64,000 nt of DNA from Candidatus Uhrbacteria bacterium CG10_big_fil_rev_8_21_14_0_10_50_16 (GTDB lineage Bacteria; Patescibacteriota; Patescibacteriia; UBA9934; UBA11717): positions 1,979-65,978 of the forward strand of contig PCYM01000005.1 of NCBI GenBank assembly GCA_002774875.1, written 5' to 3'. The translations under genes were made by a program, and so were the position numbers. Under the pieces are notes generated by a model. It made no database searches, was not told where the DNA came from, and was given only the letters and a program-made list of their open reading frames with translations. Shown here one piece after another: positions 2,797-63,122 of this stretch (positions are counted from its first letter, which is position 1; every line of letters starts with the position of its first letter).

Positions 2797-2840
2797 ACGC
2801 GGTATAAAACCTCCCGTTGGCAACATTTCTTATACTTCCT

Positions 2841-5800
2841 ATGAAATACAATCACAAAGATATTGACGCAAAATGGCAGAAGCGATGGATGAGTGAGGGC
2901 GTGTTTACTATGGACGATGCGTCGGAGAAGGAAAAGTTTTACTGCTTGGTGGAGTTTCCTTATCCCTCTGGTGCGGGTCTGCACATGGGTCACCCGCGCA
3001 GTTACACCGCGCTCGATGTGTTGTCGCGCAAGCGTCGTATGGAGGGGTACAACGTGCTTTACCCAATCGGTTGGGACGCGTTTGGTCTGCCAACGGAGAA
3101 CTACGCCATCAAAACAGGTCGTAAGCCGCAAGAAGTAACGACGGAGAACATCAACACGTTTAGACGACAGTTGCAGTCGCTTGGAATCTCTTTTGATTGG
3201 TCGCGAGAGGTCAATACCACGGACCCGGCGTATTACAAGTGGACGCAGTGGATGTTTTTGGAATTTTTTAAGGCGGGGATGGCGTACAAAAAAGCCATGG
3301 CGATTAACTGGTGTGTGCGTTGTAAAATTGGTCTTGCAAACGAGGAGGTTGTAAACGGCGTATGCGAACGCTGTGGCGGCGAAGTTGAAAAACGTGATAA
3401 AGAGCAATGGATGATTGCCATAACCCGGTATGCAGACCGGCTGATTGATGATTTGAAGACCGTGGATTATTTGCCAAAGATTGCCAAGCAACAAGAAGAC
3501 TGGATTGGCAGGTCCGAGGGTGCCGAGGTGACGTTTGCATTAGAGGGAGATGTGAGTGAATATAATTTTTTGGGTCTTCATGCGTTTTGTGATGATTCGA
3601 CATCCGCTTTTTGGCCCTGGTTGCAAAAAGAACTCTCAACTCGCGGAGGGACGCTGACGGTGTTAGATTTGCCAAATTCAAGCGAGCCAACTATTGCCAA
3701 ACAGGTGCAGTACATAAGGGAGAACTATACCTTTAATGAAAAGACGATCATTCTTACGCACTCGCTTGGGGGGGTTGCGGCAATGAAGTTACTTCCAGAA
3801 TTAGATCAATCTATTAAGAAGTTAATTCTCATTGCACCGCCCACCAATCCATCTCGGTTTATGGATAAAAAGCCTCGACCGGCGTTAGACGCTTGTTGCG
3901 ATTGGTCGTTTGATTATCAGGCTATTAAAGATAAAGCGGGATCAATTATTGTTATTGCCGATGAGCAAGATCACATTGTTCCTTTGTCACAACCAAAACA
4001 GCTTGCAGATCAGTTGCACGCAGAATTTTTCATCTTCAAATCAAACACGCCTCATTTTAATGCTGTTGAGGAGCCGGTTGTACTACGTTCGATTTTGCCA
4101 CACGTAACTGTCTTCACTACGAGGCCGGATACGCTATTTGGGGCGACGTATGTGGTGTTGGCGCCGGAGCATCCGTTGATTGCAGAACTTGCGAATAGGA
4201 TTCAAAACAAAAAAGATGTGGAAGCGTATCAACAAGTCACAAAAGAAAAGACAGAGATAGAACGTGGAGATGCGACCAAGGAAAAAACAGGCGTGATGTT
4301 GAAGGGTGTGCAGGTGATTCATCCTGTCACAGGTGAAGTATTGCCCGTGTGGGTCGCAGATTACGTGCTAATGAGTTATGGCACGGGGGCGATTATGGCT
4401 GTGCCTGCACACGATGTACGTGATTATCAATTTGCAAAAACATATGGTTTGCCAATTCATCAAGTTATAGAAGCACCGATCGTTTCTGTTCCAAGTGGTA
4501 TTGTGCATCAAACAGCAGGGCAACTTACAGAACCGATTGTTGTTGATGTCGCCTGTTATACGGGGGAAGGTGTATGTGTCAACTCAGACTTTTTGAATGG
4601 GTTGGAAATTGAGGCGGCAAAAGCAAAAATGATTGAATGGTTAGAGAAGGAGGGGAAGGGCGTGCGGAAGATTAACTATCGATTGCGCGACTGGGTGTTT
4701 AGTCGCCAGCGATATTGGGGTGAGCCGATTCCATTGGTGCATTGTGATACCTGTTCGCCGGAGACGGATGGATGGGTGGCGGTGCCGATTGAACAACTGC
4801 CTGTTACGTTACCGGATGTAGAGAAATATGAGCCGACGGATAGTGGAGAATCACCTTTGGCAACGATCACGGATTGGGTCAACACCACGTGTCCGGAATG
4901 TGGCGGTCCTGCAACACGCGAGACAGACACCATGCCAAACTGGGCGGGAAGCAGTTGGTACTTTTTGCGCTACGTCGATGCCCATAATCCGGATGCCTTT
5001 GCCGATCCACAAAAACTCAAAAGATGGATGCCTGTTGATTGGTATAATGGTGGTATGGAGCACACGACGTTGCACTTGTTATATTCGCGTTTTTGGAACA
5101 AATTTTTGTTCGATCGCGGACACGTGCCAACGTCCGAGCCGTACGCAAAACGCACAAGCCATGGATTGATCCTCGCCGAAGATGGAACCAAGATGAGCAA
5201 GTCAAAAGGCAATGTGGTGAATCCGGATGAACTCGTGGAGCAATTCGGCGCAGATGCGTTGCGATTGTTGGAGTTGTTTATTGGACCGTTTGCAGAGCCG
5301 GCGCCCTACAGCCACGCGGGGATGGTGGGAACCCGACGGTTTTTGGAGAAGGTAATGGATCTACCGGGCAAGGTTGTCGAGACGGAATCGGAGGAGGTGA
5401 CGCGCGCGTTACATCAACTCATTCAAAAAGTTGGTGAGGATATTGAGACACAGGGGTACAACACGGCCGTGAGTGCGTTGATGATTTTTGTGAATGCCGT
5501 TGGTGACGGTGGAGGGCTCACAAGGCAGACGTTGCAAGCGTTTGCGTGTGTGTTATCGCCGTTTGCGCCGCATATTGCCGAGGAAGTGTGGAGCCAGGTG
5601 GGGGATGGGTTGGCGATGCAACAACCATGGCCGGCGTTTGATGCGGAACTGGCAAAAGACGTCGTGGTAACGTTGGGCGTGCAGGTGAATGGCAAAGTGC
5701 GCGGGCAGGTGACGTTGGCCGTGGATGCAACGGAGGCGCAGGCGCGTGCGGCGGCCGAGGCGGATGAACATGTACAAACCTATTTGCAGGGAAAGACGGT

Positions 5801-5852
5801 TAAGAAGTTTGTGTATGTACCTGGACGCATTGTGAGCTTTGTGGTGGTATAG
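2841..5852 (+). CDS. leuS: Leucyl-tRNA synthetase with a ~190-aa alpha/beta serine-hydrolase domain inserted at the catalytic-core/CP1 junction
   Basis: HMGH and KMSKS motifs; Zn knuckle CVRC...CERC; CP1 editing motifs TTRPDT and GTGAIMAVPAHD. Extra segment between GAEVTFALEG and VTVFTTRPDT contains THSLGG and IADEQDH...H. Start chosen at MKYNHKDIDAKWQ. Confidence 0.9.
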   Translation: MKYNHKDIDAKWQKRWMSEGVFTMDDASEKEKFYCLVEFPYPSGAGLHMGHPRSYTALDVLSRKRRMEGYNVLYPIGWDAFGLPTENYAIKTGRKPQEVTTENINTFRRQLQSLGISFDWSREVNTTDPAYYKWTQWMFLEFFKAGMAYKKAMAINWCVRCKIGLANEEVVNGVCERCGGEVEKRDKEQWMIAITRYADRLIDDLKTVDYLPKIAKQQEDWIGRSEGAEVTFALEGDVSEYNFLGLHAFCDDSTSAFWPWLQKELSTRGGTLTVLDLPNSSEPTIAKQVQYIRENYTFNEKTIILTHSLGGVAAMKLLPELDQSIKKLILIAPPTNPSRFMDKKPRPALDACCDWSFDYQAIKDKAGSIIVIADEQDHIVPLSQPKQLADQLHAEFFIFKSNTPHFNAVEEPVVLRSILPHVTVFTTRPDTLFGATYVVLAPEHPLIAELANRIQNKKDVEAYQQVTKEKTEIERGDATKEKTGVMLKGVQVIHPVTGEVLPVWVADYVLMSYGTGAIMAVPAHDVRDYQFAKTYGLPIHQVIEAPIVSVPSGIVHQTAGQLTEPIVVDVACYTGEGVCVNSDFLNGLEIEAAKAKMIEWLEKEGKGVRKINYRLRDWVFSRQRYWGEPIPLVHCDTCSPETDGWVAVPIEQLPVTLPDVEKYEPTDSGESPLATITDWVNTTCPECGGPATRETDTMPNWAGSSWYFLRYVDAHNPDAFADPQKLKRWMPVDWYNGGMEHTTLHLLYSRFWNKFLFDRGHVPTSEPYAKRTSHGLILAEDGTKMSKSKGNVVNPDELVEQFGADALRLLELFIGPFAEPAPYSHAGMVGTRRFLEKVMDLPGKVVETESEEVTRALHQLIQKVGEDIETQGYNTAVSALMIFVNAVGDGGGLTRQTLQAFACVLSPFAPHIAEEVWSQVGDGLAMQQPWPAFDAELAKDVVVTLGVQVNGKVRGQVTLAVDATEAQARAAAEADEHVQTYLQGKTVKKFVYVPGRIVSFVVV

Positions 5853-6114: not shown

Positions 6115-7326
6115 ATGACAAAATCCGCGGTGTTCCAATGCTTTCTTGTATTGTGGATCTTCTCTGTGTTTGTGCAACAGCTTGTGTTTCGCGATGTGTG
6201 GCCAGACGTTCCGGCAGGCGACATACATCTTGTTGGGGTTGTGCGCGAACAGGTGGATCAAAAAGGACTCATGCAACGTGTGCGTGTGTTGGTCGATTCA
6301 ATCCCCGGTTTTGTACAGTTAGAAATTGGTCCGTATCCTGTGTTGCAAGTGGGGGATAGGGTTAAAACTGATTGCACGCTCACACCGATTCGTGATCTGA
6401 ACTCTGAGGAGTTTCGCTATGATCGCTATCTTGCAAAGGAACAGGTGTATGTGGTCTGCACAGGTTACGGCTCGCCGCAAGTGATCGGGGTGGAAACGGG
6501 CTGGCGGCAATCCTTGGATCGGTGGCGTCAAGCGTTTGCAGGCGTGATTCAACAACATCTCCAAGAGCCTCACGCAAGCTTGTTGATCGGATTGTTGTAT
6601 GGCGCGCGATCCACGTTGCCGACAGATCTTGTGGACGCGTTCAGACGAACAGGTACCATGCATATTGTGGCGGTGTCGGGATTTAACGTTACAGTGGTTG
6701 CTAACGCGATTTTATTGTTGCTAACGACGACATTTTTACGACGACAGCGTGCGTATTATTGTGTGCTCGCAGGGATTGGCCTCTTCGTTTTGTTTGCGGG
6801 TGCCGATGCGGCGGTGGTGCGCGCGGGAATTATGGGCGCGCTCGTGTTGACGGCAAAACAAATCGGACGGCCACGCGTAACGGTGACACTTTTTTTGATG
6901 GCCGCAAGCGTCATGCTGGCAATTAATCCTCGCATGTTGTTGGATGACGTAGGATTTCAACTTTCCTTTGCCGCCGCAATTGGATTGGTTACGCTTGGCC
7001 CTGTGTTTCAATGTTGGTTTGTATTTTTGCCAAAACGCTGGCAAATACGCTCCATTTTGTCCGAGACGCTCGCGGCCACCATTGCTACAATGCCCATCTC
7101 ACTCTTACAGTTTAAGACGGTTTCACTGATTTCGCCGATTGCAAATCTGTTTGTGATCCCGTGGATTGTCCTTGCTATGTCGCTTGGAATGGCGGGGGCG
7201 GTGGTGTCGATGGTTGCCCCCAGCAGTGGCACGATTGCGTTTTTTCCCGTAGCCGTAATTTTAGAAATCATGCTCACCTTTGTGCGCGTATTTGCGCCAC
7301 TTCCAATTATCGATCTCGCTCTATGA
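6115..7326 (+). CDS. comEC: ComEC/Rec2 N-terminal part (DUF4131 + competence membrane domain)
   Basis: LLIGLLYGARSTLPTDLVDAFRRTGTMHIVAVSGFNVTVVA competence-domain signature; multiple TM helices. Confidence 0.8.
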   Translation: MTKSAVFQCFLVLWIFSVFVQQLVFRDVWPDVPAGDIHLVGVVREQVDQKGLMQRVRVLVDSIPGFVQLEIGPYPVLQVGDRVKTDCTLTPIRDLNSEEFRYDRYLAKEQVYVVCTGYGSPQVIGVETGWRQSLDRWRQAFAGVIQQHLQEPHASLLIGLLYGARSTLPTDLVDAFRRTGTMHIVAVSGFNVTVVANAILLLLTTTFLRRQRAYYCVLAGIGLFVLFAGADAAVVRAGIMGALVLTAKQIGRPRVTVTLFLMAASVMLAINPRMLLDDVGFQLSFAAAIGLVTLGPVFQCWFVFLPKRWQIRSILSETLAATIATMPISLLQFKTVSLISPIANLFVIPWIVLAMSLGMAGAVVSMVAPSSGTIAFFPVAVILEIMLTFVRVFAPLPIIDLAL

Positions 7327-8234
7327 AACATATTCGCCTTCTCTGGATCATTACAGGTGTTGTGGTTGTTACCTCGGTTTTATTTGGATGGTTGGTGTGG
7401 CAACAGGCTTATGATCAATTACAATCGGCGCAACCGGACCTCACGGTATCCGTGTTTGACGTTGGTCAAGGTGATAGCGCCTTTGTGGAATGGGCAGACG
7501 GCACCCAGATGCTGATTGATGGTGGTGTTGACGGAACCGTGTTGAATCGATTGGGTGAGGTTATGTTGCCGTGGGACCGCTCCATTGACTATGTGGTGGC
7601 AACACATCCTCATGCGGATCATGTTGGTGGATTGATTTCCGTATTGGATCGGTATCAGGTTGCACATGTTGTGTTGAATAAACAGGTCTACGATTCGTCA
7701 GTAGCCGATGCATTTTTAGACGCGGTCATCAACGAAGGTGCGGACATGATTGATCCTAAAAATCTTGATCTGCAAGGGGCACGCGTCCTGTATCCAACAG
7801 ATAATATTCCACTCCTACAGACAGACGATCCAAATGAAACCTCGATCGTGCTTGAGATTGATGAGGCAAATCAGCATGTTTTGCTTACAGGAGATATTGG
7901 AGAACAGGTGGAGGAGCAACTTGTTCAGGCAGGGGTATTGGATGACGTGGACGTGTTGAAGGTCGGTCATCACGGAAGTAAGTATTCTTCGTCGCGCGCG
8001 TTTTTAGAAGCAATTCAACCAGAGGTGGCACTTGTGTCAGCGGGGAAGGACAACGCGTACCATCATCCGCATCCAAGCGCTCTTCAACGGCTCATAAACA
8101 TCGGAGCCGAGACCTATCGAACGGATCAAGATGGCACGGTCACCATTCGCTTTTTTAAAGACACCTACCAGCTCTTTACGGGAAACCCACGCTGGACATG
8201 GGCGCGTTGGAGTGCTATGCTCAGCGCAAATTGA
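7323..8234 (+). CDS. comEC: ComEC C-terminal metallo-beta-lactamase domain protein (separate ORF, N-terminal TM anchor)
   Basis: ATHPHADHVGGL and VGHHGSKYSS MBL motifs. Start ATG overlaps the upstream stop (ATGA). Confidence 0.8.
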   Translation: MKHIRLLWIITGVVVVTSVLFGWLVWQQAYDQLQSAQPDLTVSVFDVGQGDSAFVEWADGTQMLIDGGVDGTVLNRLGEVMLPWDRSIDYVVATHPHADHVGGLISVLDRYQVAHVVLNKQVYDSSVADAFLDAVINEGADMIDPKNLDLQGARVLYPTDNIPLLQTDDPNETSIVLEIDEANQHVLLTGDIGEQVEEQLVQAGVLDDVDVLKVGHHGSKYSSSRAFLEAIQPEVALVSAGKDNAYHHPHPSALQRLINIGAETYRTDQDGTVTIRFFKDTYQLFTGNPRWTWARWSAMLSAN

Positions 8235-49800: not shown

Positions 49801-50632
49801 AACATTCGAAGATGGCTATAAAACACTACCCAAGGATGACGATCGCGGTTTGATGCGACTTAAGGTTCGTAATCTGTCGGATTTAAAGGGGTATCTAAAA
49901 CAAATGAAGAGAAAAACAGGAACACCGCAACCAAACGGATCTCCTTCTGATCCAAATCCTCAGACAGAATTGCCGGTGTTGTATACGGGGGAAAGAGATG
50001 AGGAGACAGAAATACTACCTCCAACGTCGATTCACGATCGTGAGAGGGATCGTTTTACGGATGTGATAGACGTTGAAGAGGAGGATGGATTGGAAAAAGG
50101 ACGAGAAATGAGACAATTGCCACCTCCACCGCCAGATGTGTTTGATCTGCACGAAGCGGCCCGAGGTGGGCGTGATGCAGAACGTATGGTGGCGCTCGAT
50201 GCAGCGCGACGGGCGGCGATGGAGGAAGAAGAGGAGGAGGAAGAAGCGGGTGAGGGACTTGCGGCGGCAGCCGTGTTGGCCGCGGCGGCGGCAGCACGTG
50301 CGCGGGCCGGAGATGGGGGAGGTGGTGCCGGATCTCCACCGGGTCTTGGAAGAAGAGCGTTAGATGCGTTTAGTGGTTCCTGGGGATCGCTCTTAGCAGA
50401 CACAGCGCTCATTAACTGGGGCGGAGGATTGCTTAAATGGGGTACAAATCTTCCCGGGCGTGCGATGGACGTGGGCGACGAGATTTTGGATCGTATACAA
50501 GATTTCTTCCACGGGTTGTCCTTTAGCTGGTTGCCGTTTAGCTCTAAAAAGACGTTTAAGGACCGTGGAAAGCTCGCCATGACGGCAAAAGAGAAAGATG
50601 ACTTTGACGCTTCAAAGAAAAAAGCTGCGTAA
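46883..50632 (+). CDS. Giant (1249-aa) protein: acidic/coiled-coil N-terminal half, PP2C-type Ser/Thr phosphatase domain, then Pro/Glu/Ala-rich low-complexity tail
   Basis: PP2C motifs FMVIDAMGGMGNGD, GDVRLVV, ALTDGYTDNFT; the rest is E/D/A-rich. Confidence 0.8.
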   Translation: MAKRTKMTRADKEALGAEPGDPSVDVLSDEKKKEQLERAQDQRLHTLLHAVRLHKRLGTLLEKIPVNKRSPGQVAHDVNAQLRELVPLFETSGIVTASMSQQDIDALRLSLLVIPEGKSSVDIVREGHQKLEKALNAIRSAAKIAPEDRDIVSANHLENKVGLLRRTRGIERGIGRLQTEWRARGPKAPKNAAEAAAVLKPFIESSAEVLTIASQGDPKEVKVFVDQLLAELQKVSSLREAYVLTREKLQGVHDLVLENLSGDHVREQQLLQGVLDEEEQWHQRAQHPGKEAKVAWDAAYKQAREEARAAIDAHKSAPTTAEDTVDVDAAVATETVDGDSAIVEDVPVMEEIPEEVKVETRPSADLAEKTRRLKEWDTLTRQFASAQMFLLNPEFATDADISQADRARTVNDIVRRALITSEHTGVSTADLDMLRGLLVKDTDVNGKTWQKQLHTIEKALQQLRGRSLNQLKVTVEEEQRTQEALDVARVSAPVEEVVEEPAALDAIEPVTEQTFAQYWEELQEEDSSYANALGMDGALNLWEETAGAVDAESTEEPLDSDPLEHAENTSDVLPWSDEDVTEEVDQIGAKQLENIWEGREVFGPVERPVSGPIRSEPKEEEVNMEDTLDVPPVEETLYIGSPDDAPEVLSENVVQAFESLFKKRYGESAPDGVVVTRGERRGQMVVSGARLDYISNEKLSYKSDEDRVVISKDGCSFMVIDAMGGMGNGDIVADVLAAHVAAGEDEDLYQSIVAAQRELLNMQRDYKIDARSGACFASGELTLQGDDVVLETMHMGDVRLVVRGADGTVRFVSRDFSHVQDLVDNGIIEADRALYHPDRNKVTSAVSADCVPKKDGLIYDRETKRIIAAVQDLVDRGLKPETATALLEKAWEEMQKGLHMTDAIGRATIVLQEGDEVFALTDGYTDNFTTEELLDLLDTHDGDLQILDILTTARVEAYEKGNVGSSVYRQVHPTFEDGYKTLPKDDDRGLMRLKVRNLSDLKGYLKQMKRKTGTPQPNGSPSDPNPQTELPVLYTGERDEETEILPPTSIHDRERDRFTDVIDVEEEDGLEKGREMRQLPPPPPDVFDLHEAARGGRDAERMVALDAARRAAMEEEEEEEEAGEGLAAAAVLAAAAAARARAGDGGGGAGSPPGLGRRALDAFSGSWGSLLADTALINWGGGLLKWGTNLPGRAMDVGDEILDRIQDFFHGLSFSWLPFSSKKTFKDRGKLAMTAKEKDDFDASKKKAA

Positions 50633-61186: not shown

Positions 61187-61534
61187 ATGAAAACACTGTC
61201 AGATTTAACAACAAAGATTGTAGCTTTTAGGGATGCTCGAGATTGGAAACAGTTTCACAACCCAAAAGATTTAGCACTATCTTTAGTGTTGGAGGCCGCA
61301 GAGGTTATGGAACATTTTCAATGGAAAAATTCAGAAGAAATGGAGAAATATGTCCAAACGAATAAATCTGATATTGGTGATGAACTAGCGGATGTTTTGT
61401 ATTGGGTTTTACTAATGAGCCACGATCTCGATATTGATATTTTAGACGCACTTGAAAAGAAAATATTAAAAAATGAAGCAAAGTACCCGGTCGATAAAGC
61501 AAAAGGGCTGCACACAAAATACACGGAGCTTTAA
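61187..61534 (+). CDS. MazG-like nucleotide pyrophosphohydrolase (small, single domain)
   Basis: EVMEHFQWK...ELADVLYWVLLMSHDLDID pattern (EExxE...DxxD metal-binding helices) typical of the MazG/YpjD family. Confidence 0.7.
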   Translation: MKTLSDLTTKIVAFRDARDWKQFHNPKDLALSLVLEAAEVMEHFQWKNSEEMEKYVQTNKSDIGDELADVLYWVLLMSHDLDIDILDALEKKILKNEAKYPVDKAKGLHTKYTEL

Positions 61535-61535
61535 T

Positions 61536-63122
61536 ATGCAGGCCATAAAGACATTTGCTTTTTCTGATAGCGGCTTTGAAACAATTAAAAAAGATCATTA
61601 TGGTTTAGATTGGCCGGTTGTTTATTTTATTGAAAATGGGAAGGAGGCTTATATTGGAGAGACAATCCACCTTTATTATAGGAGCAAGGAGCATTATAAA
61701 AATAAGGAGAGACAAAGATTGCATCAAGTTCATGTTGTGACAGATGAGGAATATAACAAGTCTGCAGCACTTGATATTGAATCTTGGTTAATTCAATACA
61801 TTGCAGCAGATGGTATTTTTAAATTACAAAATGGCAATGCAGGGTTAAAGAATCATGAATATTTTGATCGGGAAAAATATTTATCAAAATTTGAGAATGG
61901 CATTTGGCCTAAGCTAGTAAAGATGGGTCTTGCGAAGAATAATCTAGTCCAATTAAAAAATAGCGACCTTTTTAAGTATTCACCTTACAAAACGTTATCT
62001 GCAGACCAAATAGCATTTGTAGAGGCTCTTGTGGATGAAATAGCTCAAGAGAAATTAACGTTTGTGGTGCGTGGAAGACCGGGGACCGGCAAGACTATCG
62101 TGGCAGTATATTTAATGAAATATTTGAAGGAAGATAGTCGCACGTCGCATCTAAAAGTGGGCTTGGTTATTCCGATGACTTCATTGCGTAAAACGTTAAA
62201 GAATGTTTTTAAAAATATTGTGGGGCTGTCACCTTCAATGGTGATTGGTCCGGCTGATACAGTAAAAGCAGAGTATGATTTGTTGTTAGTTGATGAGACG
62301 CATAGGCTGCGACGTAGAAAAAATATTACTAACTATAAGGCTTTTGATGACATAAATCGTCATTTTGGATTTGAGAATACCGGCACCGAACTAGATTGGA
62401 TTCAAGCATCTGCTATGAAACAAGTTTACTTTTATGATGAGCAGCAGAGTGTCAGACCTTCTGACATTAGACCTTCTCAAATTGCACGTCTGCAGGCAAA
62501 GGAGTTCACGTTGCAGTCTCAAATGAGAGTAAGAGGCGGAGAGAGATATCTGGCGTTTATTGATAGTTTATTTGGTGACGGAGACATTCGTTCTGTAGAT
62601 TTTCCTCAATATGATCTCAGGATGTATGAAGATATTTCTTTGATGGTAAAAGAAATAAAGGAAAAAGATGAAGCCGTGGGTCTCGCGCGTATGGTTGCTG
62701 GATACGCTTGGTCGTGGAAGACGAGGAATTTAAAACCTCACGATGAAGGATTTGATATAGAAATAGATGGGGAAAAATTGCGTTGGAATTCTACAAATGC
62801 TGATTGGGTTAACTCGGAAAATGCAGTGAACGAAGTTGGATGTATTCATACTGTACAGGGGTATGATCTCAATTATGTTGGGGTGATTATTGGTCCGGAA
62901 CTAAAATGGGTAGACGGTAAGTTTGTACTTGATAGGTCGAGCTACTTTGATAAGAATGGACATAGAGGGGTTGAAAACGAAGAGGAGATTATTGGGTATG
63001 TGTTGAATATATATAAAACCTTACTCACTCGTGGAATTATCGGTACATTTATCTATGTGGTGGATCCCGGATTACGCAATTATCTAAAAAATATTTTAAA
63101 TCAAGCCCCAAAACCTCAATAA
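61536..63122 (+). CDS. GIY-YIG nuclease domain fused to an SF1-like P-loop helicase (DUF2075-like)
   Basis: N-terminus VVYFIENGKEAYIGETIHLYYRSKEH (GIY...YIG...R..E); Walker A GRPGTGKT; Walker B LLLVDETHRL; C-terminal helicase motif CIHTVQGYDLNYVGVIIG. Confidence 0.75.
   Translation: MQAIKTFAFSDSGFETIKKDHYGLDWPVVYFIENGKEAYIGETIHLYYRSKEHYKNKERQRLHQVHVVTDEEYNKSAALDIESWLIQYIAADGIFKLQNGNAGLKNHEYFDREKYLSKFENGIWPKLVKMGLAKNNLVQLKNSDLFKYSPYKTLSADQIAFVEALVDEIAQEKLTFVVRGRPGTGKTIVAVYLMKYLKEDSRTSHLKVGLVIPMTSLRKTLKNVFKNIVGLSPSMVIGPADTVKAEYDLLLVDETHRLRRRKNITNYKAFDDINRHFGFENTGTELDWIQASAMKQVYFYDEQQSVRPSDIRPSQIARLQAKEFTLQSQMRVRGGERYLAFIDSLFGDGDIRSVDFPQYDLRMYEDISLMVKEIKEKDEAVGLARMVAGYAWSWKTRNLKPHDEGFDIEIDGEKLRWNSTNADWVNSENAVNEVGCIHTVQGYDLNYVGVIIGPELKWVDGKFVLDRSSYFDKNGHRGVENEEEIIGYVLNIYKTLLTRGIIGTFIYVVDPGLRNYLKNILNQAPKPQ

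Follow-up and report, generated by a model that had tools for sequence, protein, structure and literature searches.

Proofreading by leucyl-tRNA synthetase (LeuRS) is thought to be fully covered by its CP1 domain, and prokaryotic aminoacyl-tRNA synthetases with added catalytic domains are, to our knowledge, rare. We analysed a window of 64,000 nucleotides from a bacterium of the candidate phyla radiation (CPR), Candidatus Uhrbacteria bacterium CG10_big_fil_rev_8_21_14_0_10_50_16 (contig PCYM01000005.1, positions 1,979 to 65,978 of the forward strand), in which the LeuRS gene, leuS, contains within its reading frame a complete and apparently active serine hydrolase of the YdeN/RBBP9 type (PF06821). 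The NCBIfam model NF040702, an isoleucyl-tRNA synthetase with an N-acetyltransferase domain, likewise describes a class Ia synthetase with an extra enzyme domain; neither the added enzyme nor its host nor its location matches the present case. The trans-editing factors YbaK/ProXp, AlaX and DTD are accessory hydrolases that supplement the proofreading of a synthetase, as we propose for the hydrolase described here, but their fold and mechanism are unrelated to those of a Ser-Asp-His alpha/beta hydrolase. We know of no aminoacyl-tRNA deacylase with the alpha/beta-hydrolase fold.

An aminoacyl ester of a nucleoside has the chemistry of the 3' end of aminoacyl-tRNA. Cleavage of alpha-aminoacyl amides and esters that carry a free amine is the activity of human RBBP9 (2QS9, 7OEX), the sole characterised relative of the inserted domain; this eukaryotic protein stands alone, is not known to be linked to an aminoacyl-tRNA synthetase, has the same fold and shares 18-20% identity with the domain. 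As an aminopeptidase, RBBP9 requires a free alpha-amine and removes N-terminal residues via an aminoacyl-serine intermediate; acyl-enzyme adducts have been described with Leu/Ile, Met, Phe, Tyr and Trp (PMC8866121). It was also reported to activate valacyclovir, a valyl-ester nucleoside prodrug (Shenoy et al. 2020, as cited in PMC7730578). Another close relative, YdeN of Bacillus subtilis (1UXO), shares 27% identity with the domain; it too folds as a minimal hydrolase of about 180 residues without a lid and keeps the Ser-Asp-His order. YdeN is free-standing, whereas the hydrolase examined here is spliced into LeuRS and belongs to a clade tied to leuS.

We delimited the insert with the envelope of a hidden Markov model (HMM), at 3549-4103, as 185 residues between the motifs GAEVTFALEG and HVTVFTTRPDT. 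This agrees with an earlier note on this DNA, made from the sequence alone, which had placed about 190 extra residues at 3540-4115 between the same motifs. Measured from start to start, the spacing from G(R/K)SEG to TTRPDT is about 203 residues here versus 20-26 in insert-less relatives, and alignment with a minimal LeuRS of 767 amino acids leaves an extra block of about 181 residues at the insert site. Solved LeuRS structures have about 10 residues at this position, and none of them contains such a domain. A full-length AlphaFold2 model places the insert between strands 224-234 and 421-426 (DSSP); in this model it occupies the loop of the beta-hairpin that opens CP1 and leads into the Thr-rich editing peptide.

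Submitted alone to Pfam, the insert matches PF06821 (Ser_hydrolase) with 44.7 bits and an E-value of 1.8e-11, for a gathering cut-off of 22; the score inside the full protein is 40.4 bits. The insert alone also matches PF00561 (36.5 bits, cut-off 25.8). An AlphaFold2 model of the domain, built on an alignment of 26 embedded homologues (A1), has a mean predicted local distance difference test score (pLDDT) of 96.7 and a predicted template modelling (TM) score of 0.92, with alternating strands and helices. The top Foldseek matches of this model in the PDB are YdeN (1UXO, TM 0.83) and RBBP9 (2QS9, 7OEX and 9FCR, TM 0.80-0.82), well above larger esterases with a lid (TM at most 0.7), so that the modelled fold is that of a compact, lid-less alpha/beta hydrolase of about 180 residues. 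Searching PDB sequences with the domain profile returned YdeN (4.7e-33) and RBBP9 (about 2e-22); no aminoacyl-tRNA synthetase is among the listed PDB chains that match the profile. No match of the insert to YbaK/INS, AlaX or DTD families was found in Pfam or NCBIfam, and every one of its structural neighbours is an alpha/beta hydrolase. All the sequence and fold criteria that we applied assign the insert to PF06821 and the host to bacterial LeuRS. The hydrolase type proposed in the earlier note, together with the HMM search and the structure prediction suggested there as checks, is thus borne out: PF06821 scores above threshold, the model is an alpha/beta hydrolase with TM 0.81-0.83 to YdeN/RBBP9, and the triad is aligned and conserved. 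None of the three refuting conditions named in the note overturned it.

The catalytic residues were assigned by alignment with RBBP9, whose Ser75, Asp138 and His165 correspond to Ser308, Asp377 and His405. In the domain model, the serine lies between strand 66-71 and helix 73-84, the aspartate past strand 130-138 and the histidine past strand 159-163; this placement of the predicted triad relative to the model strands is that of a canonical alpha/beta hydrolase. The positions that are invariant across the 26 embedded domains are the histidine of an H-G-type motif, one proline, the nucleophilic serine, the glycine at Ser+2 and the catalytic histidine. The acid position is Asp in most members, Phe in P0074 and P0080 and Glu in P0075; it is invariantly Asp throughout the closest subfamily (alignment A2). 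By analogy with the alpha/beta-hydrolase literature, the H-G-type histidine, His247, presumably contributes to the oxyanion-hole region. The GxSxG elbow announced previously holds for its nucleophile and not for its first letter: the motif reads T-H-S-L-G, with Thr in place of Gly, and the first position is G, A or T in relatives, so that a small residue is retained. The acidic residue that had been pointed out can now be identified as the second Asp of ADEQDH, and of the two candidate histidines, the one in TPHFN is invariant in the 26 relatives while the one in QLHAEFF is not conserved. Judged from sequence and model together, the insert is a complete YdeN/RBBP9-type serine hydrolase and apparently an active one.

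Apart from the insert, LeuRS looks canonical, with its class I and CP1 editing motifs intact in the sequence and in the model. The gene is a single open reading frame (ORF) without interruption (2817..5852, plus strand, counted from a TTG in the ORF list), and the full protein scores 953.5 bits against the equivalog model TIGR00396 (leuS_bact), above the cut-off of 548.4. The CP1 editing domain is detected as PF13603 with 194 bits; TTRPDT falls at amino acids 426-431 and AHDVRD at 523-528, and two CxxC pairs are found, both upstream of the insert. The full-length model (pLDDT 89.3) superimposes on the solved LeuRS structures 2BTE, 4AQ7 and 5OMW with TMt 0.79-0.84, and the protein of the window shares its overall fold and every signature motif with the LeuRS of Escherichia coli (4AQ7/4ARC) and that of Thermus thermophilus (2BTE). 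The synthetase is hence as intact as the earlier note had supposed from HMGH, KMSKS and the CP1 site. The start codon is ambiguous, since the ORF runs from TTG 2817 and the conserved N-terminus from ATG 2841; the latter is likely the true start, because the N-termini of relatives align from MKYNHKDIDAKWQ. The public gene call, P0001 (987 amino acids), starts another 16 codons downstream, which would remove conserved residues.

We then surveyed the 120 best LeuRS homologues, which come from Patescibacteria wherever the source names the organism. The hydrolase is present in 28 of them, which answers the alignment against CPR and other LeuRS that had been recommended. It occupies the same pre-TTRPDT hairpin as in the window (site A) in 14 of the 28, a position after RYWGEPIPLVHCxxC, the second zinc motif of the core (site C), in 13, and a position inside CP1 (site B) in one. 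We dropped the idea that sites A and C are two antiparallel strands of the CP1 linker and spatially equivalent, since the flanks place site C in the second zinc motif. The CP1 motifs (TTRPDT and the Asp motif) are kept in 27 of the 28 hydrolase-bearing LeuRS and are intact in the window, and we accordingly rejected the possibility that the hydrolase stands in for a CP1 editing site that has degenerated. By identity of the LeuRS core, the closest relatives of the window's protein are P0002 (83%), with the insert, then P0005 (76%) and P0007 (75%), both lacking it, then P0003 and P0004 (68% each), again with the insert. The presence of the hydrolase among close LeuRS relatives is patchy, which implies repeated gain or loss.

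A scan of one genome per species with a single narrow peptide pattern, drawn from the closer alignment A2, recovered at least 27 close loci, a lower bound that is biased to the window's own subfamily; 25 of them are embedded in LeuRS. The closest belongs to Ca. Uhrbacteria UBA11717. The embedded forms occur in at least eight CPR lineages (Uhr-, Berkel-, Falkow-, Sungii-, Levyi-, Terry-, Pacei- and Saccharibacteria) and in metagenome-assembled genomes (MAGs) labelled Ainarchaeum, Nano-, Woese- and Pacearchaeota. Some sources already annotate such proteins as 'leucyl-tRNA synthetase/predicted alpha/beta hydrolase family esterase' (Joint Genome Institute, JGI) or 'alpha/beta fold hydrolase'. Our literature searches, which left subscription journals mostly uncovered, found no paper describing the architecture. 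The earlier note's impression of an undescribed architecture therefore stands for the literature and has to be qualified for databases: the fusion is common in public CPR/DPANN data and partly annotated, yet undescribed and uncharacterised as far as we found.

Several observations were made on the loops of these synthetases. A NUDIX domain occurs in 24 of the 120 best homologues (relatives P0013-P0118), always at site B, after AHDxRDxxFAxKxxLPI (a representative matches PF00293 with 48 bits). Some LeuRS carry NUDIX and hydrolase together; with NUDIX in 7 of the 28 hydrolase-bearing LeuRS and 17 of the 92 others, there is no clear association between the two. Free proteins in which NUDIX and the hydrolase are fused also exist (P0212, P0260, P0293). 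Nucleases stand in frame at site A in other relatives, namely DUF559 (117 bits) in P0082 and P0114 and PDDEXK_3 (110 bits) in P0018; these may be what is left of mobile or homing elements that exploit permissive loops. Other modules found in LeuRS loops are a SAM methyltransferase, weak Ham1-like and nucleotidyltransferase-like matches, and blocks with no family match. At its own site B, the window's LeuRS has a segment of about 40 amino acids (VIEAPIVSVPSG...GEGVCVNSDF; 4464-4592, amino acids 542-584), and it is at precisely this loop that relatives carry entire domains, be they NUDIX, methyltransferase or unknown. The LeuRS of the DPANN-labelled MAGs (L012 3335-6001, L027 4634-7300, L003, L009, L019) match TIGR00396 over most of their length (residues 13-775) and archaeal LeuRS models in their C-terminal part (residues 529-888); this mixture could be due to inter-domain transfer, a chimeric gene or mis-binning.

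Free-standing copies of the hydrolase were sought with HMMER in an exhaustive search of 1.84 billion representatives. With E up to 1e-3 it returned 13,423 members of the family, and with E up to 1e-30 it returned 248; the best 150 divide about equally between LeuRS-embedded domains and free proteins of 175-200 amino acids. A word-indexed search with the insert alone had returned no match, which reflects the limited sensitivity of that search, since full-length and profile searches gave many relatives. We examined, by rank, the free copies P0124, P0126, P0131, P0134, P0142, P0151, P0153 and P0162, to which we added P0271 and both free copies of the genome scan, L012 and L027. The neighbour of P0162 was unreadable, and this copy is outside the ten that follow. 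Nine of the ten close free copies with readable neighbours are adjacent to leuS or in the same operon. In eight cases (P0124, P0131, P0134, P0151, P0153, P0271, L012, L027), the hydrolase gene and leuS share a strand, with the hydrolase 0-80 nucleotides upstream. The LeuRS that P0131 abuts is of archaeal type; P0124, P0134, P0151, P0153 and P0271 precede a bacterial-type LeuRS, which in the case of P0153 has a NUDIX insert; and L012 and L027 precede a LeuRS of 888 amino acids. The ninth copy, P0142, heads an operon of abutting genes (L052 4001-8549, GCA_020049755.1) that encodes, in this order, two hydrolases, a YbaK-like tRNA_edit protein (PF04073), a Ham1-like protein and an archaeal LeuRS (leuS_arch, 751 bits). 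The modules of this operon are of the same kinds as those spliced into CPR LeuRS. Only P0126 is not linked to leuS. Free copies and those at sites A and C are intermixed in a rough neighbour-joining tree of 221 domains, where Fitch parsimony counts at least 40 changes of context; within the clade of the window's domain, free forms adjacent to leuS and one site-C clade are nested among site-A forms. This mixing counts in favour of a recurrent association with LeuRS.

Fusion at three sites and free copies beside leuS argue strongly, if indirectly, for a functional tie with LeuRS, and we put the probability that the insert is an active hydrolase functionally coupled to LeuRS at roughly 0.6. In CPR bacteria and in archaea of the DPANN type, the domain is probably a partner dedicated to LeuRS and, by analogy with RBBP9, a putative alpha-aminoacyl ester/amide hydrolase. 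The in-frame fusion entails obligate co-expression, so that the module would be made one to one with LeuRS and physically tethered to it. Ser308 would attack an alpha-aminoacyl ester or amide bearing a free alpha-amine, through an aminoacyl-Ser308 intermediate as in RBBP9. Such an activity might serve to clear incorrect or stray aminoacyl compounds generated by LeuRS, mischarged tRNA-Leu and aminoacyl esters or thioesters set free in editing among them; this extra step would supplement CP1 editing, not replace it. We prefer a clearance step because of the aminoacyl chemistry of RBBP9 and the YbaK-like gene in one operon. That the module acts on aminoacyl-tRNA or aminoacyl esters as a quality control, the candidate substrates being mischarged tRNA-Leu, released aminoacyl-adenylate derivatives and editing by-products, is a tentative proposal that we would not bet on. 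Equally speculative is the idea that it represents an unrecognised class of synthetase-associated quality control, an alpha/beta-hydrolase aminoacyl-ester deacylase dedicated to LeuRS and part of a 'LeuRS accessory toolkit'. We suggest, again with more doubt than confidence, that this toolkit comprises hydrolase, NUDIX, Ham1-like and YbaK-like modules, placed in the leuS operon or in LeuRS loops of CPR/DPANN organisms; the reason for it would perhaps be the uncontrolled amino-acid pools that these organisms import from their hosts.

Could the insert instead be an artefact or a selfish element, that is, an assembly chimera, a frameshifted neighbour gene, an intein or a mobile element that inserted in frame and is now decaying? 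We consider this hardly credible. The G+C content at third codon positions (GC3) is lower in the insert (0.405) than in the remaining leuS (0.551), and the in-frame DUF559 and PD-(D/E)XK nucleases at the same loop of some relatives hint at a tolerance of mobile DNA. The zone of low GC3, however, reaches from about nucleotide 3320 to about 4500, and much of CP1 lies in it besides the insert. The insert is thus AT-rich, as had been noticed, in a zone that exceeds it; for this reason we rejected composition as weak evidence for a recent acquisition, with which the codon usage had been called consistent. The reading frame is unbroken, no Hint/intein Pfam family matches the insert at E up to 1, and the junctions (ALEG|DVSEY and RSILP|HVTVF) are devoid of the intein Cys/Ser...His-Asn-Cys/Ser/Thr signature. 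An identical protein is present in an independent JGI record, proteins that are 82%, 64% and 63% identical and come from other assemblies (one on a 986-kb contig) have the same insert, and the architecture recurs in 25 genomes. These observations, with the full alpha/beta-hydrolase fold and an omega of 0.12, led us to reject an intein, an assembly chimera and a frameshift, the very artefacts that the earlier note had asked to be excluded. An NG86 comparison of the window with the Uhrbacteria UBA11717 locus L001 gave an omega of 0.124 in the insert versus 0.103 in the LeuRS core, at a dS of about 1.2-1.3 that is near saturation and equal for the insert and the rest. Purifying selection on the insert is similar to that on the LeuRS core. 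This similarity also speaks against a non-catalytic scaffold or sensor, a module on CP1 that would bind a ligand or dock protein or RNA with no hydrolysis. The loss of the acid residue in the few members mentioned above would fit such a role; but Asp is present here and throughout the subfamily, and neither Ser nor His nor the H-G-type His varies, which makes a scaffold very improbable.

A weightier competitor of LeuRS coupling is an autonomous passenger, a housekeeping esterase or aminopeptidase packed into or beside essential genes for its expression and unlinked to leucylation or editing. More distant members of the family occur as insertions in, or fusions with, SecA, TsaD, AlaRS, Der/EngA, FtsY, Fmt, ValRS and ribosomal protein L22 (P0145, P0171, P0178, P0184, P0203, P0217, P0258, P0170, P0255, P0185), all of them components of translation or targeting, with FtsY once together with a histidine-phosphatase domain, and their small-enzyme partners are NUDIX (three representatives), Ham1, histidine phosphatase, Peptidase_S51, a second alpha/beta hydrolase and Smr. 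These varied hosts are compatible with a broader, 'translation-machinery-tethered' role; they weaken a strictly LeuRS-specific reading and also fit the passenger model. So do the differing insertion sites, the patchy presence among close relatives, and the fact that the same CPR LeuRS loops host NUDIX, SAM methyltransferase, DUF559 and PD-(D/E)XK domains. Further points weigh against a LeuRS-coupled hydrolase. Glu108, the alpha-amine anchor of RBBP9, aligns with a Pro here and is variable across the clade. The CP1 editing site is intact, so that a second deacylase is not obviously needed. Lastly, the loci of the closest insert-less relatives, P0005 and P0008, keep the leuS-comEC synteny with no hydrolase gene beside leuS; the module must therefore be dispensable or be located elsewhere in those genomes. 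On the other hand, nine of the ten readable free copies are co-oriented with leuS and abut it or share its operon, with bacterial-type as well as archaeal-type LeuRS; the same clade entered LeuRS at three loops; 25 of the 27 close genomic loci are within LeuRS; and a random passenger would not be expected to keep so faithfully to a single partner in two domains of life. We judge the passenger a real but rather improbable explanation. CPR and DPANN organisms are in general amino-acid auxotrophs, and the hydrolase could also serve substrate supply, as an RBBP9-like aminopeptidase or esterase that frees leucine or other aliphatic amino acids from scavenged peptides beside LeuRS for an auxotrophic symbiont. 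RBBP9 is an aminopeptidase with Leu/Ile and Met adducts (PMC8866121), family members are fused to Peptidase_S51 and to S33/S9-like alpha/beta hydrolases, and the other synthetase hosts, ValRS and AlaRS, also charge aliphatic amino acids. Supply would nevertheless leave unexplained the hosts TsaD, Fmt, Der, SecA, FtsY and L22 as well as the YbaK-like deacylase and the Ham1-like protein in one leuS operon; the alpha-amine anchor position of RBBP9 is not conserved, and free leucine diffuses, so that little would be gained from tethering. We regard this explanation as unlikely.

Table 1. Features of the leuS gene and of its inserted hydrolase (positions in the window).
Feature	Position	Strand	Basis or remark
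leuS, bacterial-type leucyl-tRNA synthetase, 1003 aa	2841..5852	+	TIGR00396, full-length model, N-termini of relatives
HMGH (HIGH) class I signature, aa 48-51	2982..2993	+	sequence reading
GRSEG and strand AEVTFALEG, N-terminal arm of the hairpin hosting the insert	3507..3548	+	DSSP strand 224-234, motif positions
Inserted YdeN/RBBP9-type (PF06821) alpha/beta serine hydrolase, aa 237-421	3549..4103	+	Pfam, AlphaFold2, Foldseek, PDB profile, omega
His247 of LHAF, after strand 1	3579..3581	+	invariant column H11 in A1
Ser308 (THSLGG), predicted nucleophile	3762..3764	+	invariant S72 in A1; aligns with RBBP9 Ser75
Asp377 (second Asp of ADEQDH), predicted catalytic acid	3969..3971	+	aligns with RBBP9 Asp138
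His405 (TPHFN), predicted catalytic base	4053..4055	+	invariant H169 in A1; aligns with RBBP9 His165
HVTVFTTRPDT, returning hairpin strand and Thr-rich CP1 editing motif	4101..4133	+	DSSP strand 421-426
GTGAIMAVPAHDVRD, CP1 editing-site Asp motif, aa 514-528	4380..4424	+	sequence reading
KMSKS class I signature, aa 784-788	5190..5204	+	sequence reading

Downstream of leuS, two overlapping ORFs on the plus strand (6115-7326 and 7161-8234) resemble a split ComEC, with a membrane Competence part and a metallo-beta-lactamase part in which we read HPHADHVGG. The relatives L053 and L054 have the same leuS-comEC order, with comEC likewise in two genes. Elsewhere in the window, an ORF of 1255 amino acids (46865-50629, plus strand) has no Pfam match at E up to 1e-5, and a protein of 550 amino acids (61470-63119, plus strand) has a Schlafen group-3-like helicase domain (PF09848, 204 bits) and ResIII and may be defence-related. 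A tRNA cluster at 41099-41531 consists of a tRNA-Leu(CAA) on the minus strand followed by two tRNA-Met(CAT) on the plus strand; beyond this cluster, an Rfam scan of the window detected no family at threshold.

Together, these loci provide fusion-plus-neighbourhood evidence for a shared function, in which a hydrolase is associated with LeuRS through at least three independent insertion sites and an upstream gene, with bacterial- and archaeal-type LeuRS, in CPR and in DPANN. The PF06821 family, so far an orphan family known from YdeN and RBBP9, thereby gains a biological context. The loops of CPR LeuRS are permissive and accept whole enzymes, which makes them useful for protein engineering, and even if the hydrolase were a passenger only, the arrangement would still be an unusual case of gene packing in ultra-small genomes. 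The surprising part for specialists is the conserved partnership between a hydrolase and LeuRS across CPR and DPANN, a candidate new step of translation quality control or amino-acid handling in organisms that live on scavenged metabolites.

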